The position numbers and the translations under genes were made by a program. A stretch of 64,000 nucleotides of DNA, from the NCBI GenBank assembly GCA_964589975.1, contig CAZPVH010000002.1:4217-68216 (forward strand), given 5' to 3'. The notes under the pieces are model-generated. The model ran no database searches, was not told the DNA's origin, and saw only the letters and a list, made by a program, of their open reading frames with translations. Numbering within the stretch: position 1 is the first letter of the stretch; each line of letters starts with the position of its first letter. Shown here one piece after another: positions 29,068-62,420 of this stretch. This DNA is from an uncultured Candidatus Saccharibacteria bacterium. Lineage in GTDB: Bacteria; Patescibacteriota; Minisyncoccia; Phycocordibacterales; CSBR16-119.

Positions 29068-29139
29068 GGCTAGGTGGCGAAGTGGTAACGCAGCGGTCTG
29101 CAAAACCGCCATGCACGGGTTCAATTCCCGTCCTAGCCT
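29068..29139 (+). tRNA. tRNA-Cys (anticodon GCA)
   Basis: GGCTAGGTGGCGAAGTGGTAACGC A GCGGT CTGCAAA ACCGC CATGC ACGGGTTCAATTCCCGT CCTAGCC T. The U73 discriminator is typical of Cys. Confidence 0.85.
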
Positions 29140-29243
29140 CAAGTCGAACTTTTTACACATGCCCGGATGGCGCATAATTTGACTATAGAGGTATACGCGC
29201 GCGACATTTTGGCTAGTAATAGTACATTGGAAATGATTTATTT

Positions 29244-29328
29244 GCCCGGATGGCGGAATTGGTATACGCGCACGACTTAAAATCGTGTCTCGAAAGGGAT
29301 GTGGGTTCGACCCCCACTCCGGGCACCA
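29244..29328 (+). tRNA. tRNA-Leu (anticodon TAA), CCA encoded
   Basis: GCCCGGATGGCGGAATTGGTATACGC G CACGA CTTAAAA TCGTG TCTCGAAAGGGATG TGGGTTCGACCCCCA CTCCGGGC A CCA. Confidence 0.85.
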
Positions 29329-29369
29329 GTCTTTTATTTTATTTTTTTTCTGGTAGAATTTCCCGGTAC

Positions 29370-29442
29370 CCCCTTGTAGCTCAGCTGGTAGAGCAGCTCC
29401 CTCTTAAGGAGAAGGTCCTAGGTTCGATCCCTAGCGAGGGGA
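29370..29442 (+). tRNA. tRNA-Lys (anticodon CTT)
   Basis: CCCCTTGTAGCTCAGCTGGTAGAGC A GCTCC CTCTTAA GGAGA AGGTC CTAGGTTCGATCCCTAG CGAGGGG A. Unusual C1-G72 and one anticodon-stem mismatch. Confidence 0.7.
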
Positions 29443-29466
29443 CAATGCAGTCATAGATAAATGTAT

Positions 29467-29548
29467 GCCCGGGTGGCGAAATTGGTAGACGCGCTAGTCT
29501 TAGGAACTAGTGGAGCAATCCATGGAGGTTCGATTCCTCTCCCGGGCA
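29467..29548 (+). tRNA. tRNA-Leu (anticodon TAG), long variable arm
   Basis: GCCCGGGTGGCGAAATTGGTAGACGC G CTAGT CTTAGGA ACTAG TGGAGCAATCCATG GAGGTTCGATTCCTC TCCCGGGC A. Confidence 0.85.
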
Positions 29549-29590
29549 CAAAAGACACAAAATCCCGACTGCTCGGGGTTTTGTGCTTTT

Positions 29591-32167: not shown

Positions 32168-34072
32168 ATGAACTGGAAACTCATCAGAAATTGGGCCGGC
32201 ATATTTGCCGTCTCCATGCTGCTGATTCTCTGGATCGGCACACCAATCGCATGGGCGGTTGGAATCGGTCTCGGGATAACAGCCGCAGCTTTCTTCCTGA
32301 CAGGAAAAAAGCTGAGTGACTTCAACGCCACGGGAACTACGCCTGCCGGAGCACCCGCTCCGGTAACCCCTCCCCCGTCCAGAAACAAAAATCAAAGCAA
32401 TCTGATGGCATATCTGGCGTGGCCGCTTCTTGGACTGCTTCTGATTCCCGTGATCGATATGTACGTCCTGAAAGGCAAATCCCCGATTGGCGTACCACTT
32501 GTAATGGCTGCCGCGATCACCCTCGCATTGTTCTTCTTGAACAGGAGGTTTGGGGTAGCCGGACGCGCAAAGAGCGCCGCGCAGACGGGATCAAACTCGC
32601 TAGTATCGGCTTTCAATGCCATGCTTTCGAGCGGGATATCGATTACGATATTCGTTCTGTCTCTGATCGCAATTGGGCTCGTGTACTTGGTCTTCCCCAT
32701 CTATTGGGCGACCCTTGTTATGCTCATCATCGTCGGGCTTGCTAGCCTGCTCGGTCATGCGCTGATCAGCGATGAATGGCTGAAAAGCCGGGACCTCCTG
32801 ATCTTCTCACACTTCTTCGGCGAAGGAACGTATGGAGAACCCGATGCTTCCTCACACAGGAGGAATTGGAAACATCTCCCGACGGGCCTCAATTGGAAGT
32901 ACTTCGTGTGTCTGTCTGTCGCTCTAATCATTATCGGTTATTTGATTCCCGCCAGCTTCCCGCTGTTCGGATTCTCTACCGACACAATGATCGGCGACTT
33001 GTCAGTAGGACGGATATACTTCTATGTCGTACTGCTTTATCTGATAGCCTCTGGTTTACCCTTCGGCTCTCTCAAGGAGCTCGCTATCGACAAAGAAGAA
33101 GAGGGCGAAGGCACAGGTAATGATATCGGCGGGATCGGCTGGAGACCATTTGTCCGCATCAATGAACGCGGCCTGGTGTTCTTCTTCGGGTTCGCCGTGT
33201 GCGAAGTTTCTGGTTCGCTCTGGATACCTCTTCCTATGGGTATTTCTTGGGTGCATTTGTATCCAAAGAACCACATTCAACGGGAGAGGCTAAAGAAGGG
33301 TCAGAGATTGAACGCAACAAGGGAGTTTGATGGCAAACCCATCAGCAATGCCCTTAAAGCCACAGATCCGAAGAGCCGCGCCATGACCGCTGACGTGATA
33401 ACCGCGCGTTCATATGTCATACCCCGTGGATACTTGGCTATCTTTGAGAAGCGATGCAGCAGCATCCGCCAAGCAAACAAGCTGATCGAAGACACGGTCA
33501 GCGCGGAAAATGAAGTAGTCCTGAGCCCTCTCTCATACCGCGAGGTATCTGAGCACATGAAAGCCGTGGGCAATAGACTCCACAATGTCTGCCAGTTGAG
33601 GGTGCGCGAACCGTATCTCAACACACTGACAGGCACAAAAAAGGAAAAGGACGCCGAGATTGCCCGTCGCGGCTACACAGACATCGATACTTACGGTATC
33701 GATATGATCTATGTAGAGCTCAAAAGCGTGGACCCTGACAGCAGAATCACGACTGCGGACAACGAAGACGCCGCGTCGATTGCACAACTATCAAAGACCA
33801 AGCGGGTTGCTGAAGGCATTCGCGTAACGAAGAAAGCTGAAGCGATTGGCCCTTACGAAGCGCTGATCGAGGCAGTCACCAAGAACGCTCAAACGCTTGG
33901 AATCGTTGACGAAGATGGCCGCGTAAAACCCGGCCAGGAAGACTCTCTGCGGAAACTGTTTGACACGTACATCGCTACTGGAGCGATGAAGGACATGCAG
34001 ATTCAGAACATCAATGTTGGAGACAGCATTTACGGGCTCCTCAAGAACTTCATCAAACAAAAAGCTGCGTAA
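32168..34072 (+). CDS. membrane protein with a C-terminal SPFH/band-7-like domain (tentative)
   Basis: 634 aa. The N-terminal ~250 aa are multi-TM. The C-terminal soluble part has an SPFH-like stretch (IDMIYVELKSVDP...KRVAEGIRVTKKAEAIGPYEALIEA). GC is elevated. Confidence 0.35.
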   Translation: MNWKLIRNWAGIFAVSMLLILWIGTPIAWAVGIGLGITAAAFFLTGKKLSDFNATGTTPAGAPAPVTPPPSRNKNQSNLMAYLAWPLLGLLLIPVIDMYVLKGKSPIGVPLVMAAAITLALFFLNRRFGVAGRAKSAAQTGSNSLVSAFNAMLSSGISITIFVLSLIAIGLVYLVFPIYWATLVMLIIVGLASLLGHALISDEWLKSRDLLIFSHFFGEGTYGEPDASSHRRNWKHLPTGLNWKYFVCLSVALIIIGYLIPASFPLFGFSTDTMIGDLSVGRIYFYVVLLYLIASGLPFGSLKELAIDKEEEGEGTGNDIGGIGWRPFVRINERGLVFFFGFAVCEVSGSLWIPLPMGISWVHLYPKNHIQRERLKKGQRLNATREFDGKPISNALKATDPKSRAMTADVITARSYVIPRGYLAIFEKRCSSIRQANKLIEDTVSAENEVVLSPLSYREVSEHMKAVGNRLHNVCQLRVREPYLNTLTGTKKEKDAEIARRGYTDIDTYGIDMIYVELKSVDPDSRITTADNEDAASIAQLSKTKRVAEGIRVTKKAEAIGPYEALIEAVTKNAQTLGIVDEDGRVKPGQEDSLRKLFDTYIATGAMKDMQIQNINVGDSIYGLLKNFIKQKAA

Positions 34073-34075
34073 ACG

Positions 34076-34765
34076 ATGGAAGAAGTAACTGGACTGAAAA
34101 CTGTGGCCACCATTGCCTTCTTCGCAATTGTGGTTGCCATGATCTGGTTCTCCCTCATACAGCCATATATCTTCGGGAAGAGAACCTCTTCCAGTAAAGA
34201 TGGCAGTACTTCAGAGAAACCAAGTATCAAGTTGTCGTTCCTGAAGAATCGTTGGGTCATCGCAATCGGCCTGGTACTTCTACTCATCTTCGTGTGGAAT
34301 GCCGGAGGAACACAAGCTCATGTGAGGATGTCGGAGGTTAGGAATGAACAATTGCACAAGGTGTTCATTCCCGTCGGGGAAACGAGAGATGCGTTTGCCT
34401 ATGCGATCTACGCTAGCGGACAAATCGATCTCGATTACCTCGAAAGCTCTCCTGACATTACCGAGATCACGTGTGGTGATGTTCACCATTCGTGGGCACC
34501 GGGTTACACCGAGATAGACGCCTGCGACAGCCTGTTCTACTACATCTGCTACGACGCTCGTAAGAACCGCTGGGGTGCAATCAATACCAACGTCCCAGGG
34601 CAGGTCCTCCGGGTCAACGTAGATGCAGCCAAAATTCGCGTTTGGTGTCAGACAATGAACCCGCGCTACGAAGGCTACAACTTGCGCGTTTACCAACGCC
34701 AAGGCCAACCACACAAGGACCCGAGGAAGCAGCAAAAACTCGCTTCTCGGAAAAAGAAGAACTAA
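34076..34765 (+). CDS. membrane-anchored hypothetical protein
   Basis: 229 aa with two N-terminal TM segments, a Cys-containing ectodomain and a basic C-terminal tail. Starts 4 nt after the previous gene. Confidence 0.45.
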   Translation: MEEVTGLKTVATIAFFAIVVAMIWFSLIQPYIFGKRTSSSKDGSTSEKPSIKLSFLKNRWVIAIGLVLLLIFVWNAGGTQAHVRMSEVRNEQLHKVFIPVGETRDAFAYAIYASGQIDLDYLESSPDITEITCGDVHHSWAPGYTEIDACDSLFYYICYDARKNRWGAINTNVPGQVLRVNVDAAKIRVWCQTMNPRYEGYNLRVYQRQGQPHKDPRKQQKLASRKKKN

Positions 34766-34778
34766 GCTCTTTCAAATG

Positions 34779-34808
34779 AAAAAGCCCCGACTTGTCGGGG
34801 CTTTTCCA
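34779..34808. terminator. bidirectional terminator hairpin AAAAGCCCCGAC-TT-GTCGGGGCTTTT
   Basis: Read from the sequence, between convergent genes. Confidence 0.65.
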
Positions 34809-34814
34809 TTTGCC

Positions 34815-35150
34815 TTATTCCGGATTTCCAATGTTTACTTCTCCCGTCTCAACGTTTATTTCGTCTTGAGTAATTCCGAGCGTCCCAAGGATGATCTTCA
34901 TGATCAGGAAGACTCCGACCATGATAGAGAGGCCAATAATGCCCCACATCATGTGCCGTCTTCCCTTCTCCCGCCCATCATCGCTGTCTGAGTCCCGCAT
35001 GTATTCGTATATTCCATAGATGAAATATGCAACAGCGAGCACGACCAGAAAGTAGATGAGCGGATTGAAGAGGTGCTTGTTCAGCTTTTGGATGAACGTA
35101 TCGACGTCTGCGTGAGCGAGCGGAGTGACAAGATGGATAAGCCAGAACAT
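34815..35150 (-). CDS. small secreted protein with the C-terminal two-helix 'pilin-like' module (VirB2/TrbC-like, tentative), paralog 6
   Basis: Start chosen at MFWLIHLV, giving 111 aa. The module reads PLIYFLVVLAVAYFIYGIYEYMRDSDSDDGREKGRRHMMWGIIGLSIMVGVFLI. It is a paralog of the five genes upstream. Confidence 0.4.
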   Translation of the reverse strand: MFWLIHLVTPLAHADVDTFIQKLNKHLFNPLIYFLVVLAVAYFIYGIYEYMRDSDSDDGREKGRRHMMWGIIGLSIMVGVFLIMKIILGTLGITQDEINVETGEVNIGNPE

Positions 35151-35154
35151 AAGA

Positions 35155-35598
35155 CTAGACGCAGTTTGGAGGAAGTTCGAAGTCCTGGTTATCAGGATTC
35201 CAGTAAGGCTGGCAGTTTCCTGTGTTTCCGCCACCCTGACCGACATCGAATGTCTGGTTGAGGATCGCTACGAGTCCCCAAATCGAAACAATAACGAAGA
35301 CGGCAATGATTCCGTGAAGGATCGTTTTTCGCGCCTTTGCCTGTGTCTCATCGTCATCAGCAGTGATGTATTTAATCACGCCGACAATCACCCAGATGAC
35401 TGCGAGAGTCACGAGGATCGGAATGACGACCGCAAGGATTCCGGAAACGATTCCGAGAATATTGAAAGCGTCGCCACCGCCTGGCAAGACTGTACCAGCA
35501 GACTGTCCGCCTGGCTGGAAATCAAACTGCGCGAGTGCAAGCGCCGGAGCCAAGAATGACGCCGCACCTACTGACAACTTTAATAAAGTGTTCTTCAT
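35155..35598 (-). CDS. small secreted pilin-like protein (VirB2/TrbC-like, tentative), paralog 5
   Basis: 147 aa. A signal peptide ending ALALAQ, then hydrophobic helix 1 (ILGIVSGILAVVIPILVTLAVIWVIVGVI), a charged loop (KYITADDDETQAKARK) and helix 2 (GIIAVFVIVSIWGLVAIL). Confidence 0.45.
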   Translation of the reverse strand: MKNTLLKLSVGAASFLAPALALAQFDFQPGGQSAGTVLPGGGDAFNILGIVSGILAVVIPILVTLAVIWVIVGVIKYITADDDETQAKARKTILHGIIAVFVIVSIWGLVAILNQTFDVGQGGGNTGNCQPYWNPDNQDFELPPNCV

Positions 35599-35682
35599 AA
35601 TATAAAATTAATAATAAATAATAAACGACCTGTTATTCACTAATACCCCCTTATTATATCACACGCCTCCCTACGAAATGCA

Positions 35683-36084
35683 CTACACTCCGTCCTGAAG
35701 CTGTGGAATAAGCGTATCAGTTCCAAGTCCAAATGTTCCCTGAATAATTCCGACAAGCCCCCAGATGGATACCATGACGAATAGGGCGACAATCCCGTAG
35801 ATCATAAATCGGCGTCCCTCTTCCCTCTGCGCCGCTTCATCAGCTTTTGCAATGTACTTGATCACACCAACAATGAATAGAACGATGGAGAGCGTAATGA
35901 GAAGTGGAACCAAAGCCTTTCTCATGATACAGATCCCGAGCAAGAGCACATCTGCGACGTTGTCAACGCTGTCGTCACAAATACTGCCACCATTGCCGCC
36001 AGACTGCTGCGCCAGAGCTGGAATCGGAACCGCGGGCATAAGAGAGAGGACAAACATAAAAGATAGAAGGAATTTTTTCATCAT
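35683..36084 (-). CDS. small secreted pilin-like protein (VirB2/TrbC-like, tentative), paralog 4
   Basis: 133 aa with the same architecture: a signal peptide ending PALAQQ, then ...LLITLSIVLFIVGVIKYIAKADEAAQREEGRRFMIYGIVALFVMVSIWGLVGII. Confidence 0.45.
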   Translation of the reverse strand: MMKKFLLSFMFVLSLMPAVPIPALAQQSGGNGGSICDDSVDNVADVLLLGICIMRKALVPLLITLSIVLFIVGVIKYIAKADEAAQREEGRRFMIYGIVALFVMVSIWGLVGIIQGTFGLGTDTLIPQLQDGV

Positions 36085-36086
36085 GA

Positions 36087-37280
36087 TTAAGTTAATTTAA
36101 TAATTTCTTTGATAATGGTGTTCATGGCAGATATGTCATCTATAGTGCCTTTCAAAACTGTCGCAATCATCCAGGCGCCAAAGATAATGAATGCACCTAT
36201 TATAACGTATAAGAAGTTCTTTTTCGCAACCTCAAGCTTGTCGGTATTTCCCCGAGCTTCGACAAAGAGGAATCCAGAGTATATGGCAAAGAGTATAAGA
36301 AACGGAAGCGCGATTTTCACCATAACCTTAAAAAGCTTCTGAAGGAATGCAACTATATCAATATCGCCGTTCTCACCTAGAGGATTTTGTAAGCTAGAGG
36401 TGAAACTCAAATTCGAGTTATAGTCCCCGCCCGAAGCAAAGAAATCTATACACGGCTGAGTATCGGCAAAAGCCTCCTCATAACAATCTTGCGCTGGATT
36501 GAAATCGTCCGGCGGATTATCGTTTCCACCCTGACCGCCCGGGAAATTTATAGGCTGATTGGTCAAAAATACCTGATCTGTGTTGTCAGAGTTTACAATG
36601 GTAAACGTATATTGTTGTCCTGGAACAATTCCGGAACTTGAAAGCCCGCCGAATGTATGCGAGAAAACTCCGGATCCATTCGTCGACACGTCAGCTGCTG
36701 CAAGCTCTTCACCATCCAGACTATTTATAGTAATGAGTGCGTATCCGTTGTTTAAGGTTAGATCGCCAGAAATTACCAAAAGGGCATTTCCAGATTGAAA
36801 CTGATACTCTGCGGTATTGCCCTCTCCATTATTCCCCCCTTGGCCATTCGACAGATACCAAGATAGTCCGCTACAAATTTGATAATCGCTGTTATTAGGG
36901 TTATTCGGATTGTAAAGATTCATGCCCCCTTGGCTAGCCAAATATGTATTATTAACTAAACAGTATTGAAAGGCGTAACCAGTCGGGTCATCGGGAAGCA
37001 TCATCGTTGTATTTATATAGCCACCGTTAACATTGATCGGCAAATTGTTCACCTGGGCGATCGGAGGATCCATGTCATCTGGATCAGCGAACCCGAGTAG
37101 CGTGTACCCACTAAAGCTATTTATCTCCACCGGCTGCAACTGCACGGTTACAATAAAATCCCCGGTCATCGGAGTAACGTTGATTAGGCCCATGAGCAAA
37201 TCCGCAGCAAATACCGAGCGGGGCACAAGCACCAATATGACTGTGAAAAAAAGTATTGTTTTAAAAATTATTTTTTTCAT
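36087..37280 (-). CDS. secreted protein with an N/G/Q-rich ectodomain fused to the C-terminal pilin-like module, paralog 3
   Basis: Start at MKKIIFKT, giving 398 aa. A signal peptide is followed by a ~300-aa Asn/Gly/Thr-rich domain. The C-terminus IALPFLILFAIYSGFLFVEARGNTDKLEVAKKNFLYVIIGAFIIFGAWMIATVL matches the module of the small paralogs. Confidence 0.45.
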   Translation of the reverse strand: MKKIIFKTILFFTVILVLVPRSVFAADLLMGLINVTPMTGDFIVTVQLQPVEINSFSGYTLLGFADPDDMDPPIAQVNNLPINVNGGYINTTMMLPDDPTGYAFQYCLVNNTYLASQGGMNLYNPNNPNNSDYQICSGLSWYLSNGQGGNNGEGNTAEYQFQSGNALLVISGDLTLNNGYALITINSLDGEELAAADVSTNGSGVFSHTFGGLSSSGIVPGQQYTFTIVNSDNTDQVFLTNQPINFPGGQGGNDNPPDDFNPAQDCYEEAFADTQPCIDFFASGGDYNSNLSFTSSLQNPLGENGDIDIVAFLQKLFKVMVKIALPFLILFAIYSGFLFVEARGNTDKLEVAKKNFLYVIIGAFIIFGAWMIATVLKGTIDDISAMNTIIKEIIKLT

Positions 37281-37281
37281 A

Positions 37282-38196
37282 TTAAATACTGAGCAATGCA
37301 TCCTGAATAGCGCCGGCTACAAGCCAAGCGGCCAATAAAACCATTCCTCCGATAATCGCATAAGTAAATGCTTCTTTCGCCTTCTCGAGCTGACCATCAG
37401 AACCGCGCGCGGTGACAAAGAGAAAACCGGAGTAAACGATAGCCATGGCGATAAGCGGAATGCCGATGGTTAGAATAAAGTCTACGACCTTTTGGAAAAA
37501 TTCCGGAATAGTGTCTATCGTTCCGGCGATCGGATTCGGAAGATTAAGGTCTATGACCGATGGACCATCAACTTGATCGACAATCTGCGGCGGCTCATTT
37601 TCAAAAGTATTACCTACGGTGTTGCCTGGTGCATATACGTCAAGCCCGTTAGTCCCGCCCATATCGTTTCCTAGGGGTATTATGTCTATGAATTCCCAAT
37701 CTGACGGTGCGCCAATAGGCGTGTCATAGGCCACAGAAGTATCAGAGAGATGCAGGTCTGTGTCGTCTTCATTCTCAACTTGCAAGAAGTATTCGCAATC
37801 TGTTCCAGGTACATCTTCACAATTCTCATTACCCGCCCTCATAACAATTGTAAAAGCGCCAGCGCCATCAGTTTCTAGACCACCAATTATAATGAGTTCG
37901 TCATTAAGAGCGTCAATATTAGTCGAGCCAGCCAGAGTGAGGTCCATCTCGACAAGACTGAATTCTAGCCCTATTCCAGAACAATCGGATGTTTGTACGT
38001 CTATATATACAATAGGTCGATCGCTCTCCTGATAAAAGTTCTCAGCGCCCATGCCTCCCTCCTTGTAAGTGCGGAAACCGACGTTGTTGACCGCGCAGGT
38101 CTGCTGCGCCTGGGCGGGCGTCGCCAGAAAATACGCTCCCATGAGGATGGCTGGAAAAATCAGAACCGCGAGATATGATAAAATATTTTTTTTCAT
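37282..38196 (-). CDS. secreted protein with an acidic ectodomain fused to the C-terminal pilin-like module, paralog 2
   Basis: Start at MKKNILSY, giving 305 aa. The C-terminus reads IGIPLIAMAIVYSGFLFVTARGSDGQLEKAKEAFTYAIIGGMVLLAAWLVAGAI. Confidence 0.45.
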   Translation of the reverse strand: MKKNILSYLAVLIFPAILMGAYFLATPAQAQQTCAVNNVGFRTYKEGGMGAENFYQESDRPIVYIDVQTSDCSGIGLEFSLVEMDLTLAGSTNIDALNDELIIIGGLETDGAGAFTIVMRAGNENCEDVPGTDCEYFLQVENEDDTDLHLSDTSVAYDTPIGAPSDWEFIDIIPLGNDMGGTNGLDVYAPGNTVGNTFENEPPQIVDQVDGPSVIDLNLPNPIAGTIDTIPEFFQKVVDFILTIGIPLIAMAIVYSGFLFVTARGSDGQLEKAKEAFTYAIIGGMVLLAAWLVAGAIQDALLSI

Positions 38197-38213
38197 TGTT
38201 TCTACTTTAAATA

Positions 38214-39713
38214 TTACTGCGGCGGCTCGGTGCCAAGGATTCCCCAAAGAGGTCCTTCCGGCGTATAGCCAAAGACGACTAGCACAAGCTTAATTATAAC
38301 CCATGCGAGCAGCGCGACGATGAGACCGATGATAACTTTGCCGATCATTTCTTTGGCCTTGTCTCGAGCGCCGGAAGATCCGCCGGAAGTTAGGAGAAGT
38401 ATTCCGGCCCAAGCGATCACTATGGCCACGAACGGAAAAGCGATGAAGACTATAAGGAAGTTTACAACGCGGTTCACCGTCTCAAGGAACGCGTCAAAGT
38501 CGCAATCGTAATTAGCAGGATCTTCACCGCAAGCAACCAAGCCGTTGTATTCCGGACCTTGCGTTTGAGTATTCCCTCCGCCGCCTCCACCTCCCTGGCT
38601 TGGGGCCGGCATAGTGAATGTATGCGGCGGCGTCAGATCTACTCCGGTAGACTGATTAACTATGGTGTAAGTATACTGCTGCCCGGCCACAAGTCCGGCG
38701 TTAGTCAGGCCGAAAAACAGATGCTCAAAGTAACCGTTTGCTATTTGAGACTGCGGCCCAGTAACTGTCTCTGCAGCCATCATTTCCGTACCGCTCATAT
38801 CTTTTATGATAATTTCGATTGGCAGGTTCGTTATAACGTACCCATTTTGTGTCTCCAAATGTCCCGAAATCAACACACTATTCTCCTGAGGAAAGCTATG
38901 AGTTACGTCGTTTCCTCCTAGCAGGTCCGTCGGAGCAAAACCATAAGTAAACAAGTTTGTACAACCATCGGAAATGTTAGACGATGCGCATTCAAAAATA
39001 GTGAAGTAATAGTCAGTATTCGGCGTCAGGTTCGGGATAGTCGCATTGAAGTTGTAATTCGGACCATTGGCAGACTGGATTGGTAAATAGCCGACCACAT
39101 TGCTATAACTCGCTTGGCCAGCAATTCCGTATCCGTATTCAATTTGAAAATATTTTGTTACGTTAGTTGGAGCAATTGGAATCAAATGGGCTCCACTGAA
39201 AGAAATACTATTATCACTCGAAATGATAGTACCCCAGTTCACTCCGTTAATATATTCCGGGTTGGCATACGTTGTCATGATGTCCCCCTGACCCTCTACT
39301 TGAATGCAAGGAATTTGATACTGGAACCCAACACCGCTCTGACCTTGCGAAATATAGGTTATCCCAGCCTCTGGTGGAGTTTGGTAGAGCCGAAATTCAT
39401 AAGTCTGGCCGCAAGAGAGTCCCGAGATTGGAGCTTGAAAGTTTCCATTTGATTGAATACTTAAGTTTGGATGCTGTGTCTGAGCAGGCTGACCGGCGAT
39501 ATTTGTCTTGAAATAAGCCTGAGCGTTCTGAGGCTGCTGCCCGGGAAGCGGTGTAACTGTGCCCGACACGGTTACCTGGGTAAGAGAGTTTTCAACCACA
39601 TTCGTCAGTGTATATGGAGATGACAGAACAAAAGCTTCGGCTGCATTAGCGCCCACAAAGAGCGCAAATACTACTACAAAGATTGAAAATAATTTTTTAA
39701 ATGATTTCATCAT
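38214..39713 (-). CDS. secreted protein with a large T/Q/N/G-rich ectodomain fused to the C-terminal pilin-like module, paralog 1
   Basis: 499 aa. A signal peptide is followed by a ~400-aa beta-rich ectodomain, a GGGGGGGN linker, and then FLIVFIAFPFVAIVIAWAGILLLTSGGSSGARDKAKEMIGKVIIGLIVALLAWVIIKLV. Confidence 0.45.
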   Translation of the reverse strand: MMKSFKKLFSIFVVVFALFVGANAAEAFVLSSPYTLTNVVENSLTQVTVSGTVTPLPGQQPQNAQAYFKTNIAGQPAQTQHPNLSIQSNGNFQAPISGLSCGQTYEFRLYQTPPEAGITYISQGQSGVGFQYQIPCIQVEGQGDIMTTYANPEYINGVNWGTIISSDNSISFSGAHLIPIAPTNVTKYFQIEYGYGIAGQASYSNVVGYLPIQSANGPNYNFNATIPNLTPNTDYYFTIFECASSNISDGCTNLFTYGFAPTDLLGGNDVTHSFPQENSVLISGHLETQNGYVITNLPIEIIIKDMSGTEMMAAETVTGPQSQIANGYFEHLFFGLTNAGLVAGQQYTYTIVNQSTGVDLTPPHTFTMPAPSQGGGGGGGNTQTQGPEYNGLVACGEDPANYDCDFDAFLETVNRVVNFLIVFIAFPFVAIVIAWAGILLLTSGGSSGARDKAKEMIGKVIIGLIVALLAWVIIKLVLVVFGYTPEGPLWGILGTEPPQ

Positions 39714-41017
39714 TTTTGGAGCAAGAGCTTAAGTTCGGTGCTGGCACTCATAATAGCGTCCTCGGTAGAAGAAAGCCCAGACAAAACATCTTCGAACATC
39801 TGAGAAAATATTTCTGTGGTTTTCTTGTCATCTGGATCTACCCAAGAGCGCGAGCTCAATGCAGCTGCGTAGTAAATCTTTCCGTATTTATTCTGGTTTG
39901 GCGCGGATATTAGATCGCGACGGACCGGAGCAAAGCCTGACGCACCAGCAATTCCAGCAGCCGCTGGACCATTGGCCAGACTGGAGGCAATAGCAAGCGC
40001 CATTTGCGCTTTTGGCGAATTCGACGGGATGGAGAGGGCGTAAACATCCGCGTAAGTGATGACTGTCGGAAGCTCTTTGACCTGCGGCAACTGATGGATG
40101 TCGAAATTAAGATTCGGATTACGCAAGCGAATATTTTCAAACTCGCTAGTAAGGCCAAAATAGATCGCCAGGTCCCCAGAAATAAACTCTTTATCGGAAC
40201 TTTCCATAGACTTGTTCCAGCTATAAACGGATTTCGTTGGGTCGGAGAATTCACCGTAAAAATCCATCGACTGAATCGCCGGCTTTGAAGAAACCGCTGA
40301 CGAAGCGCCAAGGACCGGAGCAAATTTGCCATTTGCCGGATTTCTAGCCACTATTGGATTATCAAGCTGAAGCATAAGAGCAACGAAAATTTCCTTGGCA
40401 TTCTTCACATTCTCAAACTCACCGAGCGCGACACCGGCCTTATCAATCTTCAGAGCCTCGTTAATACTCGTAAGTTTCGGCACATATTCAAACAAGTCGC
40501 TCCAGTACGTCGGGGGTTCGGTGTAGCCTTTTGACTCCAAGATATCCTGGTTGTAATACATAATGAGCGGATCGACGAATATCGGGAAACCCAGGAAGCC
40601 TTGGCCTTTTTTGAAAATTTCCGCAGCTCGGACGAATGAATCGTCATAAGTCCTTTCTGGAAAATATGTAAAAGGAATGTTTATGAGCTTGTCTTCGTAT
40701 TTAAATATTAAATCCTGAGACATAAGGAATGCGTCCGGAAGCCCGCCGAAAGCAAAAGCATTCAATATATCTTCTTCGTACGTTCTGGGATCCTTGGCCA
40801 CATATTTTACCTGCATGCCCGAGCCTTGGGTCGAGAGCGCGATAGCCGGAGCGAGCTTTTTTGAAGGTAGAGTACCCCAAATAGTCAGCGTTGGCGCGGC
40901 CGCGACTTCTTCGGCGCTTTTATTTCCCCCAAGCTTGATCGCGCCGGAAAAAATTAGGACACCAAGAAATACAAAAAAACCAAAAAAGATAAGGATGCCG
41001 ATTTGGAAGCCTTTCAT
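39710..41017 (-). CDS. extracellular solute-binding protein (ABC-transporter SBP family 1-like), first gene of the pilin-like operon
   Basis: ~435 aa with an N-terminal signal anchor and a bilobed SBP-like length and composition. No permease or ATPase is adjacent. Its stop overlaps the start of the next gene (ATGA). Start chosen at MKGFQ, downstream of the leader helix. Confidence 0.5.
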   Translation of the reverse strand: MKGFQIGILIFFGFFVFLGVLIFSGAIKLGGNKSAEEVAAAPTLTIWGTLPSKKLAPAIALSTQGSGMQVKYVAKDPRTYEEDILNAFAFGGLPDAFLMSQDLIFKYEDKLINIPFTYFPERTYDDSFVRAAEIFKKGQGFLGFPIFVDPLIMYYNQDILESKGYTEPPTYWSDLFEYVPKLTSINEALKIDKAGVALGEFENVKNAKEIFVALMLQLDNPIVARNPANGKFAPVLGASSAVSSKPAIQSMDFYGEFSDPTKSVYSWNKSMESSDKEFISGDLAIYFGLTSEFENIRLRNPNLNFDIHQLPQVKELPTVITYADVYALSIPSNSPKAQMALAIASSLANGPAAAGIAGASGFAPVRRDLISAPNQNKYGKIYYAAALSSRSWVDPDDKKTTEIFSQMFEDVLSGLSSTEDAIMSASTELKLLLQK

Positions 41018-41150
41018 CCTGTTAGAAGCAGGTCGCGGTCGCAAAACCACAACATGCTTTATTATTTTTTATAAAAAAACCTTCCTTGATCATTATCATA
41101 GAAATTACAAACCCGTGACCGTGGCTTCTAACGGGATTCATACCACCAAT
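41018..41150 (-). promoter_or_regulatory. conserved leader RNA element (copy 1), with a long-range helix that sequesters the start-codon region
   Basis: mRNA sense reads AUGAAUCCCGUUAGAAGCCACGGUCACG...(~85 nt)...GCGACCGCGACCUGCUUCUAACAGGAUGAAAGG. The paralogous copy upstream of proS shows compensatory changes. Confidence 0.55.
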
Positions 41151-41193
41151 TGTAGAACAAATATGGTGTTTTGGCTAAAAAATATGTGAATTG

Positions 41194-41727
41194 CTACGAA
41201 GCTTTACGTTCAAAAACCATGGCATAGTGGTGCTCGCCGGCTGGCAGAGACTTTTTGTATTCAAAAGGACCTGTCTCAAATATCCTGCGCGCAGTTTCTT
41301 CATCCACGACAGCCTCAGGCTGAGGGCCAATACCACCAAACGATTCATACCAGTCTATTAGCAGAACTCTCCCTCCGATCTTCGTAATCCGAGCACACTC
41401 ATGTACAAGACCCGCCTTTGAATCTATCTGAAAAAGTACGTTAGAAATAACTACAGTGTCGACAAAGTTTTGTCGAAGCTTCGTTCCTCCAATTATTTCA
41501 ATATCGCCCCAGATTATTTCTATATTTTTGATTCCCTTTTGCGCGGCGTCCTTAGCCAAGCGTTCCAAAAGGTTTTTTTGAATATCAATCGCAAAGACCT
41601 TGCCTGTCTCGCCGACTTTTTCTGACAACGCAAAAGCCGTGTGACCATAACCGACGCCAAGGTCAGCGACAACGGTGCCTTCTTGGATGCCAAATTGATT
41701 CAATATCTCACGAGGGTCGTTTAACAT
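41194..41727 (-). CDS. class I SAM-dependent methyltransferase
   Basis: 177 aa with a VADLGVGYGHTAFALSE (motif I, G-x-G-x-G-like) Rossmann-fold pattern. Confidence 0.65.
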   Translation of the reverse strand: MLNDPREILNQFGIQEGTVVADLGVGYGHTAFALSEKVGETGKVFAIDIQKNLLERLAKDAAQKGIKNIEIIWGDIEIIGGTKLRQNFVDTVVISNVLFQIDSKAGLVHECARITKIGGRVLLIDWYESFGGIGPQPEAVVDEETARRIFETGPFEYKKSLPAGEHHYAMVFERKAS

Positions 41728-47894: not shown

Positions 47895-48036
47895 ATTGGG
47901 ATTATATTTCCTGGCGAGGACAAGCGCAAGGCAGAACCTTGAATGGCATTCGAGCGAAGGAAATAATGAGTGAGAATAACGAGACCCTTATACCAAATGA
48001 AACTGCCCCGGCGCGATGCGCCGGGGCAGTAGGTTC

Positions 48037-48711
48037 TTAGAGGTCTTTGAAGTCCCAACCCCACCAGACTCCGAAGTAACGCTCTTCTTGGCTCCAAAGA
48101 TCCCAAGCATAAGCTCGGACAAAGAAGCTTTTTCCGATCTCCGCGCCGAGCGCAGGACCGATATCCAGATCATCGAGCTTCCCGGAAATTCGTATCTGTT
48201 CCGCAAGACCTACCCGAAGCCACTTGTTCACTTTGTAAGCTGCGTCAGTGAAGTTGTAAGTGATGTTCGTTGTATTGTGGGTCAACGCGAAACTGTGTTG
48301 GTTGATCGAATAGATCTTCCAGCGCTCCCTGTCGAGCGTAGTGTGCGACGTGAAGCCGATAAGAGTCCGAGCCCTGTAACCATATTCCCACATTGTGTTA
48401 TAGGTGGTTACACCAAATGCCGGAGCGAACGAGAGACCGAGTTTCTTGCCGATATTCCACCGGTGGCCCCAGTAGAAGGAATTTGCTCGAGTTTGTTCGA
48501 AGTTGTAGCGAAATTCGAACAGATCATCGTTTCGATACACCAGACCTCGGAAGGCCACGACAGGATTCTCGAGCTCAGCTCGGTCCCACATCCACATGGA
48601 TGCATTGGCGGACCAATCGCTTGGGTTGCCTACGATCTTCGCCTGGTCATTCTGCTGAGCAGAGACATTGGCGCACAGGAGGACCACTGAAAAGGACAGT
48701 TGTAAGCGCAT
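48037..48711 (-). CDS. secreted W/Y/R/N-rich beta-strand-rich protein, hypothetical
   Basis: 224 aa with a signal peptide (MRLQLSFSVVLLCANVSAQQ) and an alternating aromatic/polar pattern reminiscent of a beta-barrel or beta-sandwich. GC is elevated. Confidence 0.45.
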   Translation of the reverse strand: MRLQLSFSVVLLCANVSAQQNDQAKIVGNPSDWSANASMWMWDRAELENPVVAFRGLVYRNDDLFEFRYNFEQTRANSFYWGHRWNIGKKLGLSFAPAFGVTTYNTMWEYGYRARTLIGFTSHTTLDRERWKIYSINQHSFALTHNTTNITYNFTDAAYKVNKWLRVGLAEQIRISGKLDDLDIGPALGAEIGKSFFVRAYAWDLWSQEERYFGVWWGWDFKDL

Positions 48712-48794
48712 GTTTGTTCTTTTGTTTTAAACTAACATACTTATCTATAATTGTCAACCAAAGAAAAACGCCCCCGATTTACGGGGGCGCTTTT

Positions 48795-50459
48795 TCAATC
48801 CTTGAAAGGAACTGTATCCTCCTCTTTTCTGACATGCTCTTTGGAACTCTCTTGTTCCATATAAGCTTGCCAACTAGAAGGATGTGCTTCGTTGCCTTCG
48901 AGATGTATACAGACCTGACGGTCAGCAGCATCAATGAGAGCAATTTCGGCTTTGCCGAACGTGATGATCTGCAGGCTATCGCCCGACTTGGCCTGGATAT
49001 TCGTCTTCCAGTACAAGTGGCGGTCACCGTTCACATCACGAACTACAGGGGTCATCTCTGTAGGCTCTTGGCGGTGCCAATCATATTCAGGCATGTAATC
49101 CCGAACTTTGCTTGGTATCGCTGTCGGACCCATCAGTTTCTCTGGCGACGTCTTGTGGTCAAAGTAGTAGACGTGTGAGTCGTCGCCTTTGACAAAGAGA
49201 CTGAGCGAAAGAAGGCTCTTGTCTTTGCCGTACGGTTCGAGCGGGATGTAGTGACATAAGCCATCTTGGGCCTTGCCACCTGACACTTCGCTCAGTACGA
49301 AGTACTCCTCGAAAGGAAGTATCGTATACGAGTTCGGCGAGTTAGGGACTCTGACATCTCCTGCGTGGTTACCCCACGAGGGAGCCCAGAAGCCTTTGTA
49401 GAACCGGAACGTTTGTGCCGCGTAGAGCGCCACTTGGTCCGGAACCAGAAGTTGTCCCGTGAGGAAGTCGTGATCTGTAACCTTATCGGCCGTGATCACT
49501 TCTCCTCCGCCAAAAAGAACTTTTTCAAAGTAGGGCGCCTTGCCCTGCTTGAACACAACTACTCCTCCATACTCAGGCATCGGGAACAGAATTCCCGTCC
49601 ACTTGATGAGCGGCACGACTTGGACGAAATCGCCATTGTCGTCCGGTATATAGATAGAGTAGTTTACCGGTTCATACCGGAAGTACTGCCAGAAGCCGAG
49701 CTTCTTGATGGCAGCGGTCTTCACGTTGCTCGACAGGATCAGATTCTCCCCGAAGGAGAACTCGACCTTTGCCACCTCCTTGTTCTTTTCATCGAACTTC
49801 GGAGACAGCGTATTGCCGGGCGTCAGGAAAACCTGTTCGACGTGACCGAACAAGTATTGCCAGATCTTGGTGCTCGACGGCTCTACGGCCATCGTAAACC
49901 AGTACTCGGCGTCTTGTCCCAAGCCGTACCGCCTGCGGGCCGCTTCGTTGAAGCGGACCATGTGCGGCAGACTCACGTCTTTGGTATCATCCACGCTCTC
50001 CTTGTCGGCGATGCTGTGGATGCTGTACACCGCTTGTACTTTCTCGTGCGCTGTAAGCGGCATATCCGTGAGCTCAACTGAGCGAATGCGCAGATGATTC
50101 CGGTAAAGCGAGACGTACTCGTAAGACATCGCGCCGGCCGTGTAAACGACAACAGCTGCGAACGTCCATATGATCCCTGTCCATGTCTTCTTCCACCATG
50201 CGCCTTCCCGTTTCTTCACCCGCTTCACGACGAAGTAGATGGTTGAGACGAGGAGGATTGCAAGGGGAGTTTTGAGGACAATGAACAGTACGAGCGGATG
50301 GTACAGACCTCGGAGGGTGAAGAGCGCGAAGAGGAGGAGGAAGGCAAGCAAGACCCAGATGGTCTTGCCCACCACTCCGTAATTTCGCCACTTGAACCAC
50401 CCCTGGATATTCCTTCCCCATCGTGTGAGGAAGAAACCTTTCCTTGCTGTGCTTTCCAA
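48795..50459 (-). CDS. large membrane protein, hypothetical
   Basis: 554 aa with ~4 N-terminal TM helices and a large soluble domain. GC-rich block. Confidence 0.5.
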   Translation of the reverse strand: MESTARKGFFLTRWGRNIQGWFKWRNYGVVGKTIWVLLAFLLLFALFTLRGLYHPLVLFIVLKTPLAILLVSTIYFVVKRVKKREGAWWKKTWTGIIWTFAAVVVYTAGAMSYEYVSLYRNHLRIRSVELTDMPLTAHEKVQAVYSIHSIADKESVDDTKDVSLPHMVRFNEAARRRYGLGQDAEYWFTMAVEPSSTKIWQYLFGHVEQVFLTPGNTLSPKFDEKNKEVAKVEFSFGENLILSSNVKTAAIKKLGFWQYFRYEPVNYSIYIPDDNGDFVQVVPLIKWTGILFPMPEYGGVVVFKQGKAPYFEKVLFGGGEVITADKVTDHDFLTGQLLVPDQVALYAAQTFRFYKGFWAPSWGNHAGDVRVPNSPNSYTILPFEEYFVLSEVSGGKAQDGLCHYIPLEPYGKDKSLLSLSLFVKGDDSHVYYFDHKTSPEKLMGPTAIPSKVRDYMPEYDWHRQEPTEMTPVVRDVNGDRHLYWKTNIQAKSGDSLQIITFGKAEIALIDAADRQVCIHLEGNEAHPSSWQAYMEQESSKEHVRKEEDTVPFKD

Positions 50460-50479
50460 TGTGCTGCTTTGGTTTTTTG

Positions 50480-51061
50480 TTACCGTTGGGTGTACTTACT
50501 GATGTCGTCGCGAGGATCGGTGTCCGGCTTCACGGGGCCGCTTGGCGGCGGCGTGATGATCGGCTCCTTCTTTTCCTCGCGAGCTCCATTTCCGCGGACA
50601 CCTCCACCAACATTGTCGGTTTCAGCGAAGTGCCTTTCTGCTTCTTCTTTCAGCTTGGTTCCCACTTCCTCCGCCTTCTTCTGAACCTTGGGCCAGATAT
50701 AGTGCGTATAGGTAGCAAGTACCACGATACCGACATTGAACATGAACGGCCAGAACCCTTCAAAGGGACTGACATATTCGGGGTTCTTTGGATCGGACGA
50801 AACCGTGAGCAGTTCCCACACCAGCGTAAAGATGATGGTGGCACCCAAAGACACGATGAACCTGATGAGCAAGTTCTGGCGGAATACGATTCCGCGCGGC
50901 CCTTTTTCATCCTCTTTCTTCCAGCCGAGACGGCCGAAGATGCTCATTACCGAAAGTGTCAGGCCATTCGGCGCAACGCGTCGGCGCGAGTCAAGGAAGG
51001 CCAGGAACATGCAGCCCAGGAAAAGGGCTGCGATCTTGAAGAGAAAACCGATGAACTCCAT
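50480..51061 (-). CDS. membrane protein, hypothetical
   Basis: Start chosen at MEFIGFLF, giving 193 aa. It has 3-4 TM helices and a charged Pro-rich C-terminus. Confidence 0.4.
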   Translation of the reverse strand: MEFIGFLFKIAALFLGCMFLAFLDSRRRVAPNGLTLSVMSIFGRLGWKKEDEKGPRGIVFRQNLLIRFIVSLGATIIFTLVWELLTVSSDPKNPEYVSPFEGFWPFMFNVGIVVLATYTHYIWPKVQKKAEEVGTKLKEEAERHFAETDNVGGGVRGNGAREEKKEPIITPPPSGPVKPDTDPRDDISKYTQR

Positions 51062-51084
51062 GTGTTGTGGTTTTTGGTTTTGGT

Positions 51085-52386
51085 TTACTGCGAACTTGCA
51101 TCTTTCCTGTCGATGTATGTCGGCAGGTAATGTTTTTTGAGGTGTGCAACAGCCCACTCCTGCTTGATCTTCGCCCACTTCTGATAGTGAGCGAAGAATT
51201 CAGAACGATCATGAGCGTACATGCGCAGGATGTCGAATGACGTCCGGCGCATCATCATCTGCCACAGGAGCTTCCGCAAGTTTTGCGGAAATTCCGGATT
51301 GGGGCGGATCAGCAGTTCCCTTTCCTTCTTGAGGATTCGGGTTGTGCTGGTATCTTCAAGGCGTTTGATCTTCCGAAGAAGCCTATCTGCCGTGAAGTAT
51401 GTCTTCTTTAGAAGCCCCAGGTCGGAAAGGCGTTTTACCACCATCTTCCTTTTTGGACCTTCGAAGTAAGACAGGTCTGCGGTTTCATCAGCGCTATCGA
51501 CGATGGCTTCGAGGAGCAGCAGATCCTTGATCCGCTGCAACCTGGAAACTCCTTCTTCGGTCGCTAACTCATCCATGTAGATATCGTAGACACCGTGCTC
51601 TTCCAGATAGCTCCACAGATGTGGATCACTGATCGCATAGGAGCGATATCCGCTCGGCGTCACCTTTTGCTCGTTGTGCGCAGTCTCGCTCGCATGGACG
51701 ATTAGAGGGTCCATGTCACTGACATTCCTGAGGACAAAAACGCCTCCGAATGCCTGCGTAAAGAAAGACTGCACTTCAAGAAAGGGAATGGCTGGTACAT
51801 CGAACTGCCGGAATCTGAGATCACCGTGCTCTTTCGAGGTCCGGATAATCTCGCTCCGCAGCGCTGTGTCAGACCACGCCCTGTCTTCTTCGTAATACTG
51901 CCTGATCAGCGCTGCCTGCTCCCGCTTCGCTTCTGGGAGATTAACGGTGCTTCTGATCCGCAGCTCGTACGCGTCGATCATCATGAGGTCTTCTGGACTC
52001 TCATAATGTTCGATATTCTCGTCCATCTCAACCCATATTCCTCCCTCTGTTAGAAGATCGGAGATCTGGGCTTCGGCGTCCGTGAATATCTTTTCCATCA
52101 TGCGCCGGTCAAATGAGTGCACCGGAAAATAGACCGGCAAACCCTTTTGATCCAAGCTCACGAGTATCGCGTACGTATTGGCAAGCCCGTGCGAAAGATA
52201 GAAGTTATCCTTCTTCTCATCCGCAATTTCGGGACTCCATCCCATCGCATCGATTGAGAATCGCTCAAGCGATGTTGGCGCAAGACCGATGGCTTTCAGA
52301 CAGTCGTTGTAACGACCGACAAGAAGACCACCGCGTATCGGCAAAAGTCCTTTGCCGAACAATCCTGCTTCCTGTAGTCTATTCAT
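51085..52386 (-). CDS. hypothetical protein
   Basis: Start chosen at MNRLQEAG, giving 433 aa of soluble helical protein. Abuts the AAA ATPase gene. Confidence 0.45.
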   Translation of the reverse strand: MNRLQEAGLFGKGLLPIRGGLLVGRYNDCLKAIGLAPTSLERFSIDAMGWSPEIADEKKDNFYLSHGLANTYAILVSLDQKGLPVYFPVHSFDRRMMEKIFTDAEAQISDLLTEGGIWVEMDENIEHYESPEDLMMIDAYELRIRSTVNLPEAKREQAALIRQYYEEDRAWSDTALRSEIIRTSKEHGDLRFRQFDVPAIPFLEVQSFFTQAFGGVFVLRNVSDMDPLIVHASETAHNEQKVTPSGYRSYAISDPHLWSYLEEHGVYDIYMDELATEEGVSRLQRIKDLLLLEAIVDSADETADLSYFEGPKRKMVVKRLSDLGLLKKTYFTADRLLRKIKRLEDTSTTRILKKERELLIRPNPEFPQNLRKLLWQMMMRRTSFDILRMYAHDRSEFFAHYQKWAKIKQEWAVAHLKKHYLPTYIDRKDASSQ

Positions 52387-52446
52387 GTGTGTTGTGCGTT
52401 TTTTGCCCGGGCAGCCGAATTGCCGCCCGGGACCAAGTGAAAGCAA

Positions 52447-55555: not shown

Positions 55556-55612
55556 TGTTGAGGTTTACTGTTTGTGAAAACCCCCCGGCACATGTCCGGG
55601 GGGTCTCGCTTG

Positions 55613-62290: not shown

Positions 62291-62420
62291 CCCGTTAGAA
62301 ACAGGTCGCGGTATTTCCGCCATCTGCAAGTTTAATGTTGATAATCTTAGGTTAATCGAGTGCCTTGCCTATCCCGTCTTCGTGACCGCGGTTTCTAACG
62401 GGACTCATGGGCTATATATT
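62291..62420 (-). promoter_or_regulatory. conserved leader RNA element (copy 2) upstream of proS
   Basis: mRNA sense reads AUGAGUCCCGUUAGAAACCGCGGUCACG...(~75 nt)...AUACCGCGACCUGUUUCUAACGGGAUGAGAC. Both arms match the copy at 41018-41150. Confidence 0.55.

Follow-up and report, generated by a model that had tools for sequence, protein, structure and literature searches.

What does a bacterium build from six secreted paralogues that are encoded in one run behind a solute-binding protein (SBP)? The question is raised by seven genes on the minus strand of contig CAZPVH010000002.1 (assembly GCA_964589975.1), which comes from an uncultured member of the Patescibacteria and of which we analysed a stretch of 64,000 nt (hereafter the window). 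The six paralogues, p1 to p6, belong to a family of pilin-like proteins of type IV secretion systems (T4SS), and the whole cassette is kept in fixed order in related genomes. It seems to us about an even call that this is the form which the "VirB2-like pilin array" of Patescibacteria takes in Paceibacteria, and that it makes a fixed heteromeric pilus or surface structure, either a T4SS-type pilus or a stalk. A sequence-only reading of the window had listed seven packed genes, and all of them are present with the claimed spacing according to the open reading frames (ORFs) and refined start codons. The stop codon of the SBP gene and the start codon of p1 overlap in ATGA, and the gaps after p1 are, in order, 17, 1, 2, 84 and 4 nt.

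39710-41017, minus strand: SBP gene, 435 aa, start codon refined
38214-39713, minus strand: p1, 499 aa; signal peptide, beta-rich ectodomain of ~375 aa, conserved Cys pair, C-terminal hairpin module at ~38283-38474
37282-38196, minus strand: p2, 304 aa; signal peptide, acidic ectodomain of ~180 aa, hairpin module at ~37306-37515
36087-37280, minus strand: p3, 397 aa; signal peptide, two beta-sandwiches like those of immunoglobulin (Ig) or fibronectin type III (FnIII) domains, disordered linker, NPLG motif, hairpin module at ~36153-36356
35683-36084, minus strand: p4, 133 aa; signal peptide, conserved Cys pair, hairpin module at ~35743-35904
35155-35598, minus strand: p5, 147 aa; signal peptide, flexible Gly-rich segment, hairpin module at ~35263-35442, C-terminal beta-hairpin knob of disulfide type
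34815-35150, minus strand: p6, 111 aa, the smallest; very short leader (AHA, followed by DVD), then hairpin module at ~34911-35075

One module had been proposed to be common to all six C-termini, and PF18895 (T4SS_pilin) was indeed matched in six of six. Four of the proteins exceed the gathering score of 26.6 bits, namely p1 (32.1 bits, E = 1.3e-7), p2 (41.8 bits, 1.1e-10), p3 (39.7 bits, 5.3e-10) and p5 (34.2 bits, 2.6e-8), while p4 (26.0 bits, 9.7e-6) and p6 (25.2 bits, 1.7e-5) fall just short of it, by 0.6 and 1.4 bits. A hidden Markov model of the module, run against the ORFs of the window, returned precisely the six pilin-like ORFs and none other at E <= 10. The C-termini are 13-29% identical to p1 in a multiple alignment, the pairwise identity among the six paralogues within the array is 18-40%, and the p1-p3 modules are homologous to the p4-p6 modules in a profile comparison with hhalign (97% probability, E = 1e-11). 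Orthologous modules from five lineages matched PF18895 in 30 of 30 cases at E <= 0.01 (best 3.3e-12). Moreover, the family was found in all 58 homologues of p5 (109-240 aa) and in 22 of the 23 homologues of p3 (251-417 aa).

Arrays of this family have been reported before. With PF18895 and PF04956, VirB2-like pilins were identified in 1,948 Patescibacteria assemblies; 441 arrays were described, which hold 2-11 genes each and whose identity averages 25%, and arrays are reported for 383 assemblies (PMC12102498). Pilin arrays were noted in Saccharibacteria in 2018 (bioRxiv 10.1101/258137), and the Southlakia epibionticum pilins SEML1_0014-0019, which are highlighted in a 2025 review, are essential and lie inside a T4SS cluster (PMC10633639, PMC12857230). 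In our analysis these are six PF18895 proteins within a VirB4/PrgI/VirB6 cluster and without an SBP. Reviews treat a pilus of Patescibacteria only as a possibility, and a conduit for host molecules is only speculated on. The sequence-only reading had suggested a novel system, and this part did not stand because arrays of the same family are already published for Patescibacteria; its core idea is therefore a correct rediscovery. In the literature that can be searched, which is incomplete, we found no description of the strict link to an SBP or of the ectodomain fusions, nor of the positional orthology, the separation from T4SS genes, the scarcity of Lys and Arg in the ectodomains or the internal promoter before p5-p6 that are set out below.

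A scan with an SBP alignment, covering one genome per GTDB species, yielded at least 575 relatives and 80 loci; the same scan with the single SBP sequence as query found no relatives. The SBP homologues are 38-80% identical and come from Paceibacterota/Parcubacteria-type genomes, the relatives being labelled Paceibacterota, Parcubacteria, Nomurabacteria and similar. At 59 loci the sequence continues downstream for at least 4 kb, and in all 59 the SBP gene stands directly upstream, on the same strand, of 4-7 module ORFs (four in 15 loci, five in 18, six in 20 and seven in 6). The paralogue array, whose presence in related genomes the sequence-only reading depended on, was thus found at every one of these loci. 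In the six loci with Pfam annotation (L003, L005, L006, L007, L017 and L018), the order is methyltransferase, SBP and a run of PF18895 genes. Furthermore, each paralogue of the window has its best match at the same position of the array in L003, L005 and L006 (6/6), and mostly so in L007. Orthologues of p4 at the same position are 47-76% identical, positional orthologues of p6 occur in all five loci compared, and p5 is the best conserved paralogue with 81% identity to its counterpart in L003. This positional orthology indicates that the six paralogues are ancient and non-redundant, and for this cassette it argues against the published idea of variation for host range.

That idea, in which the paralogues would be interchangeable major pilins diversified against hosts by analogy with Bartonella Trw, agrees with the low identity within the array, which matches the published average (PMC12102498), and with the lineage-dependent size and presence of the ectodomains. 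However, the positional orthologues extend across lineages whose SBPs are 46-80% identical and form an old and fixed set without turnover, p1-p3 and p4-p6 are two subfamilies with distinct conserved loops, Cys pairs and tails, and adjacent modules are sometimes fused. We therefore regard an array for antigenic or host-range variation as unlikely, and positional orthology argues instead for a defined heteromeric structure.

Fused modules were seen at several of the SBP-linked arrays. Two-module ORFs occur at 7 of the 80 loci (L073 12589-13266, L060 12152-12826, L045 7557-8165, L082 4614-5204, L080 12031-12648, L052 7668-8465 and L035 2169-2663). A metagenomic ORF, P0307 (L099 76-1743), joins one signal peptide to six tandem hairpin modules with 12 transmembrane (TM) helices and is followed by three single pilin genes. 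Such fusions suggest that the products of neighbouring genes are physical neighbours in the assembly.

In hydropathy profiles, each of p1-p6 begins with a hydrophobic leader that contains an AxA site and closes with a pair of hydrophobic segments that enclose a charged loop of 13-20 residues. AlphaFold2 models of p3 and p5 contain helix-turn-helix hairpins; in p5, with a predicted local distance difference test (pLDDT) value of 71.5, the helices span residues 42-79 and 83-116 and are followed by a small C-terminal beta-hairpin. The proposed layout of a signal peptide plus two helices was thus borne out by hydropathy, AxA sites and models, with the reservation that the leader of p6 is atypically short (~14 aa) and has no basic n-region. 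Conserved Cys pairs are confined to two places, ahead of helix 1 (in p1 and p4) and after helix 2 (in p5), and these pairs would sit on the outer face of the membrane, with both termini of the module outside. Extensions are nearly always N-terminal to the module, which fits an N-out topology.

The module itself stands at the C-terminus in every case, the tail after it having a median length of 8 aa, and its N-terminal cargo ranges from 0 to ~2,080 aa. This constancy, together with a fold search that returned nothing specific, is what one would expect if the module were a plain C-terminal membrane anchor of unrelated surface proteins without any collective function. Such an anchor is, however, hard to reconcile with the 273 of 312 array proteins that have at most 180 aa and no cargo, with the small members being the best conserved ones, and with the invariable grouping of 4-7 genes after the same SBP. 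In addition, members of the family are essential in the T4SS locus of S. epibionticum (PMC10633639). A plain anchor is in our view very unlikely. After removal of the leader, p4-p6 consist of essentially the module alone, which points to the module as the functional unit.

Profile comparisons of modest strength suggest that the module is related to VirB2. With hhalign, the p1-p3 modules were aligned to nine annotated VirB2/TrbC genes of the mating-pair formation type MPF_T from plasmids (P = 2.3e-4, 44% probability), with 62 columns in register across the pre-helix part, helix 1, the loop and helix 2. All controls, consisting of the reversed profile and 20 column-shuffled ones, gave P >= 0.095. 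The p4-p6 modules alone were not significant in this comparison. PF04956 (TrbC/VirB2) was matched in 9 of the 30 orthologous modules at E <= 0.01, with a best E of 1.2e-7. Below threshold, the Mbov_0395 pilin-like family NF045849 was matched by p4 (1.2e-5) and by p6 (1.6e-9; 37.3 bits, cutoff 40). We also noted a weak in-register match between PrgF from the T4SS of Enterococcus pCF10 (L100 11546-11773; 75 aa) and module alignment A3 (hhalign P = 0.009), and phmmer linked PrgF to two array ORFs at E ~0.003. The PF18895 module may have a counterpart from monoderms in PrgF, a weakly supported lead that we keep, and the 627 published "PrgF" hits in Patescibacteria may overlap with PF18895 pilins.

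Three of the paralogues carry large domains in front of the module. The model of p3 (pLDDT 73) comprises beta-sandwiches at residues 27-110 and 155-245 and helices at 309-341 and 346-396; only tandem Ig/FnIII folds were matched in Foldseek (E ~1e-4), and an invariant NP(L)G motif stands between the disordered linker and the hairpin. Over 239 aa, the ectodomains of p1 and p3 are ~30% identical, and p1 has weak matches of the fn3/Pur_ac_phosph_N type. We read the ectodomains as non-enzymatic tandem folds of Ig/FnIII-like type. They consist of 35-47% N, G, Q, T and S, and Lys plus Arg make up 0-3.9% (p1 1.1%) versus ~9% in the SBP; the 274-aa ectodomain of p3 has 0 Lys and 0 Arg. This depletion is kept in close relatives (L003, L005, L006) and is weaker, at 5-7%, in distant ones. 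Size and presence of ectodomains vary by lineage: a member of at least 250 aa occurs in 14 of 59 arrays, and such members account for 27 of 312 proteins, the largest having 2,170 aa.

That fusions of an ectodomain to a pilin module had not been described was another claim of the sequence-only reading. The searchable part of the literature, incomplete as it is, holds no description of them, but the architecture is common in sequence databases: a profile of p3 matched 5,847 representative clusters, and among the best 150 many are 250-630 aa long with a C-terminal module. Giant members of 2,170 aa (L090 9747-16259) and 737 aa (L069 11329-13542), each ending in a single pilin module, were seen in SBP-linked arrays of other Patescibacteria. 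The ectodomain-pilin fusions are candidate adhesins. A published survey detected no adhesins, and these "missing adhesins" of Patescibacteria pilin systems may be sought in the Ig-like ectodomains that three of the paralogues carry.

The first gene of the cassette encodes a protein with an SBP_bac_8 domain (PF13416, E = 5.2e-16), and its homologues also match PF01547. By sequence it is a sugar-type extracellular SBP of family 1, to which, among solved structures, the trehalose/maltose-binding protein 1eu8 comes closest (E = 6e-8). Across 39 homologues, the aromatic residues W58, W183, W278, W403, Y83 and Y297 are invariant. A role as carbohydrate receptor fits these aromatics and the weak similarity to the trehalose/maltose-binding protein. 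The protein had been taken for a lipoprotein, which we can correct, since its N-terminus MKGFQIGILIFFGFFVFLGVLIFSGAIKLGG contains neither a Cys nor a lipobox and a single TM segment (residues 6-24) provides the anchor instead. No permease or ATPase gene was found in the cassette at the six Pfam-annotated loci, nor an ATP-binding cassette (ABC) permease or ATPase in the window.

The absence of secretion machinery from the window, which the sequence-only reading had pointed out, was confirmed. Neither VirB4, VirB6 and VirD4 nor type IV pilus machinery, nor any other T4SS or type IV pilus component, was found in Pfam and NCBIfam scans of the large ORFs, and phmmer searches with PrgJ, PcfC, PrgH and PrgI of pCF10 returned nothing in the window. 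These findings bear on an alternative in which the cassette encodes a self-contained, non-filamentous membrane complex. In such a complex, 4-7 hairpin proteins would associate into a hetero-oligomer of fixed make-up, a bundle or ring that has 8-14 TM helices and acts independently of a T4SS as an SBP-dependent uptake or receptor device displaying Ig-like domains. The SBP linkage in 59/59 loci with translational coupling, the lack of nearby T4SS genes in 86 loci, the missing ABC permease and ATPase in the window, the fixed positional orthology, the two-module fusions at 7 loci and the six modules of P0307 would all fit it. SBP-dependent secondary transporters such as the tripartite ATP-independent periplasmic (TRAP) and tripartite tricarboxylate (TTT) transporters function without an ABC ATPase and provide a precedent. 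On the other hand, the homologous array of S. epibionticum lies within a VirB4/VirB6/PrgI cluster and has no SBP, and profile similarity points to VirB2 pilins. In the alignment, the TM helices are almost purely hydrophobic without conserved polar or charged intramembrane residues, unlike those of a transporter, and large Ig-like ectodomains would be unusual on transporter subunits. We consider such a complex possible, though doubtful.

Several observations weigh against a heteromeric pilus or stalk as well. PF04956 has a cutoff of 27.9 bits; the best scores in the window lie at 21.3-22.2 bits, with E = 3.3e-4 for p2, and none reaches the gathering score. The proposed VirB2/TrbC-like nature of the module is thus upheld by membership in PF18895 and by a weak profile similarity above controls, but not by the TrbC family threshold. 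The loop of the module is ~7 residues longer than that of MPF_T VirB2 and of mixed charge. Fold searches with the hairpin returned generic alpha-hairpins, in which VirB2 is not separable from any long alpha-hairpin, and the module profile found no solved VirB2 or TraA among PDB sequences but only chance matches to TM5-TM6 of G protein-coupled receptors; the structural comparison suggested along with the sequence-only reading was therefore uninformative. Homologues of VirB4, VirB3, VirB6 and VirD4 were absent within +/-10 kb of 86 cassettes (1.37 Mb) in single-sequence phmmer searches, which have limited sensitivity. Ectodomains of 300-400 aa would be sterically demanding on pilus subunits unless they are rare or placed at the tip. 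To our knowledge, no filament has been seen for any PF18895 protein of Patescibacteria.

With these reservations, the heteromeric pilus or stalk could be built as follows. The six PF18895 paralogues would be exported by Sec and their leaders cut at the AxA sites, and the two hydrophobic helices would enter the membrane as a hairpin whose termini both face outward and whose charged loop lies in the cytoplasm. From this membrane pool, one heteromeric surface structure may assemble, which would be a short pilus of T4SS type or an oligomer resembling a stalk. Its core would consist of p4-p6, with p5-p6 boosted by a promoter of their own (see below), and the likely major subunit is p5, which shows the highest conservation, is probably served by this promoter and bears a disulfide knob at its C-terminus. 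On p1-p3, the N-terminal Ig/FnIII-like ectodomains would point away from the cell and let these subunits serve for adhesion or as spacers. The membrane-anchored SBP, translationally coupled to p1, may act at the same site as receptor for host carbohydrates or as glycan-binding co-adhesin, and assembly would presumably need VirB4-type machinery encoded elsewhere in the genome. In this scheme polymerisation, the division into major and minor subunits, the role of the SBP and the dependence on VirB4 are the steps that we infer; family membership, the features of topology, the conservation of the cassette, positional orthology and the fold class of the ectodomains are shown. The clade-wide coupling of SBP and pilins gives the conduit idea for T4SS and pilins of Patescibacteria a concrete, testable handle. 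If the findings hold, they redirect experiments to Paceibacteria, which is the largest class and has few cultured members.

The cassette is framed by the following features.

41194-41727, minus strand: gene for a small class I S-adenosylmethionine-dependent methyltransferase, 177 aa; Pfam Methyltransf_31/25/11 and Ubie_methyltran
41018-41193, minus strand: leader of the SBP gene, 176 nt; promoter-like site and 5' hairpin with 23-nt element
35599-35682, minus strand: p4-p5 intergenic region, 84 nt; conserved, putative internal promoter for p5-p6
34764-34787, minus strand: terminator-like hairpin after p6, 10-pair stem followed by a T-rich tail (consensus scan); weak and tentative
32168-34765, plus strand: convergent neighbour pair, a 634-aa polytopic membrane protein (32168-34072) and a 229-aa membrane protein

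In 52 of 72 loci, the gene directly upstream of the SBP gene and in the same orientation encodes a methyltransferase homologue, and the gap between the two has a median of 21.5 nt; for the enzyme of the window (41194-41727), no NCBIfam family was matched at its cutoff. The gap is often below 30 nt, and the linkage is kept despite a differing next upstream gene, which is UvrA in the window and GyrA in most relatives. The cytoplasmic loops of the pilins are one possible, speculative target of the enzyme. A broader proposal takes methyltransferase, SBP and 4-7 hairpins together as an autonomous SBP-coupled surface apparatus of Paceibacteria. Its pilin-derived hairpins would make up a fixed hetero-oligomer and serve either as a conduit or receptor complex that takes up host carbohydrate from the SBP or for docking to the host through the SBP and Ig-like domains, with conjugative pilins exapted for nutrient scavenging independently of VirB4. 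We think this rather unlikely.

Within the array, an alignment of the p4-p5 gap from six lineages revealed a conserved extended -10 box TGnTATAAT (TGTGATATAAT in the window), followed by GGTCG and TATTATTAAT, and a gap of 80-143 nt is kept in L003, L005, L006, L007 and L017. To judge from this conservation, p5-p6 are probably also transcribed from their own promoter, and the box and the retained gap together point to a separate and probably higher expression of the two genes. The leader of the SBP gene contains a promoter-like site, TAGCCA-17-TACAAT, at 41177-41149. A shared leader RNA element had been proposed here. A 23-nt element, TCCCGTTAGAAGCCACGGTCACG (TCCCGTTAGAARCCRCGGTCACG), does occur twice on the minus strand of the window (0 expected by chance), at 41114-41136 in the SBP leader and at 62381-62403 upstream of a class II aminoacyl-tRNA synthetase gene (61031-62329). 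The leader has no match in Rfam at E <= 1. The CCCGT...ACGGG stem is retained in the closest relative, L003, where the loop differs, and the rest of the element is not. The element with its 5' flank resembles the T-arm and acceptor 3' end of a tRNA (GGTATGAATCCCGTTAGAAGCCA). The region 59229-62329 had been a candidate for a second SBP/ABC operon with the same leader; this was rejected, as it encodes an aminoacyl-tRNA synthetase of prolyl/threonyl type, MreB and MreC. Terminator-like sites in the region are not more numerous than expected from shuffled sequence.

Past the array, a convergent pair of genes is found in five of the six annotated loci (the contig of L018 ends inside the array); the two products measure ~200-220 aa and 325-394 aa, respectively. 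The larger protein belongs to the SPFH/Band_7 family in L005, L006, L007 and L017, with E-values down to 3.4e-11. The corresponding proteins of the window (634 and 229 aa) have no significant match in Pfam or NCBIfam, and BLASTP searches into distant loci gave nothing at 1e-5, so that the linkage rests on the six annotated loci. The synteny of the pair is conserved, and its membership of the system is uncertain. The 634-aa protein, in which the polytopic N-terminal part is long, was also considered as VirB6- or VirB3-like and was rejected, as it has only a weak match to DUF4133 (E = 0.048).

Elsewhere in the window, the G+C content rises to 0.51-0.53 at ~48000-57000, compared with ~0.46 in the remainder. 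This block encodes a DUF6638 protein (51085-52446), an AAA ATPase (52447-54438) and other proteins without a family match. It could be an island gained by horizontal transfer, or else a defence locus. Four tRNA genes on the plus strand at 29068-29549 (Cys-GCA, Leu-TAA, Lys-CTT and Leu-TAG) lie just upstream of a 581-aa ORF without a family match.

How does the cassette compare with known systems? The arrays of Patescibacteria, such as SEML1_0014-0019 and the "array of small signal-peptide proteins" of TM7x, resemble it in PF18895, with or without PF04956, and in tandem, divergent signal-peptide paralogues of low identity, about six in number, on the chromosome of a reduced genome of epibiont type. 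Unlike the SEML1-type arrays, the array in the window is not located beside virB4, virB6 or prgI, is led by an SBP and usually by a methyltransferase, and has three members with ectodomains of ~180-375 aa. Published accounts of the arrays contain no SBP link, ectodomains or positional orthology, and propose variation rather than a fixed heteromer.

VirB2 of A. tumefaciens and TrbC of RP4 share the cleaved leader, the two-helix hairpin with a short polar loop and the location of both termini outside, and mature p4-p6 are pilin-like in size. In contrast to them, the proteins of the window have a longer loop of mixed charge, no adjacent virB3 or virB4 and a monoderm host; enzymes for cyclisation or processing of these pilins were not identified, and N-terminal ectodomains are, as far as we know, without example in VirB2. 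Among conjugation systems of monoderm or wall-less bacteria, the Mbov_0395 family of the Mycoplasma integrative conjugative element and PrgF of pCF10 are likewise small hairpins with two TM segments, and PrgF has the same layout of helix, charged loop and helix. However, their matches are sub-threshold, PrgF has no signal peptide, and both are single genes in conjugation clusters. Tandem, variable VirB2 paralogues are also present in the Trw system of Bartonella, where multiple copies of trwL (VirB2) and trwJ (VirB5) belong to a T4SS apparently repurposed for attachment instead of DNA transfer. The Trw copies are recent and lie inside the T4SS operon, whereas the paralogues described here are ancient, positionally fixed, unlinked to machinery and of different architectures.

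The tip adhesins FimH and PapG follow the same logic of a receptor-binding beta-sandwich fused to a pilin domain, with small cargo-free subunits forming the shaft. There is no homology, since chaperone-usher pilins are Ig-folds joined by donor-strand exchange and the module in our cassette is a membrane alpha-hairpin. Finally, the SBP has the SBP_bac_8/SBP_bac_1 fold and the aromatic residues typical of sugar binders in common with the family-1 SBPs of ABC transporters (MalE/UgpB-like). It differs from them in its TM anchor, in lacking a nearby permease or ATPase and in being invariably co-transcribed with pilin-like genes.

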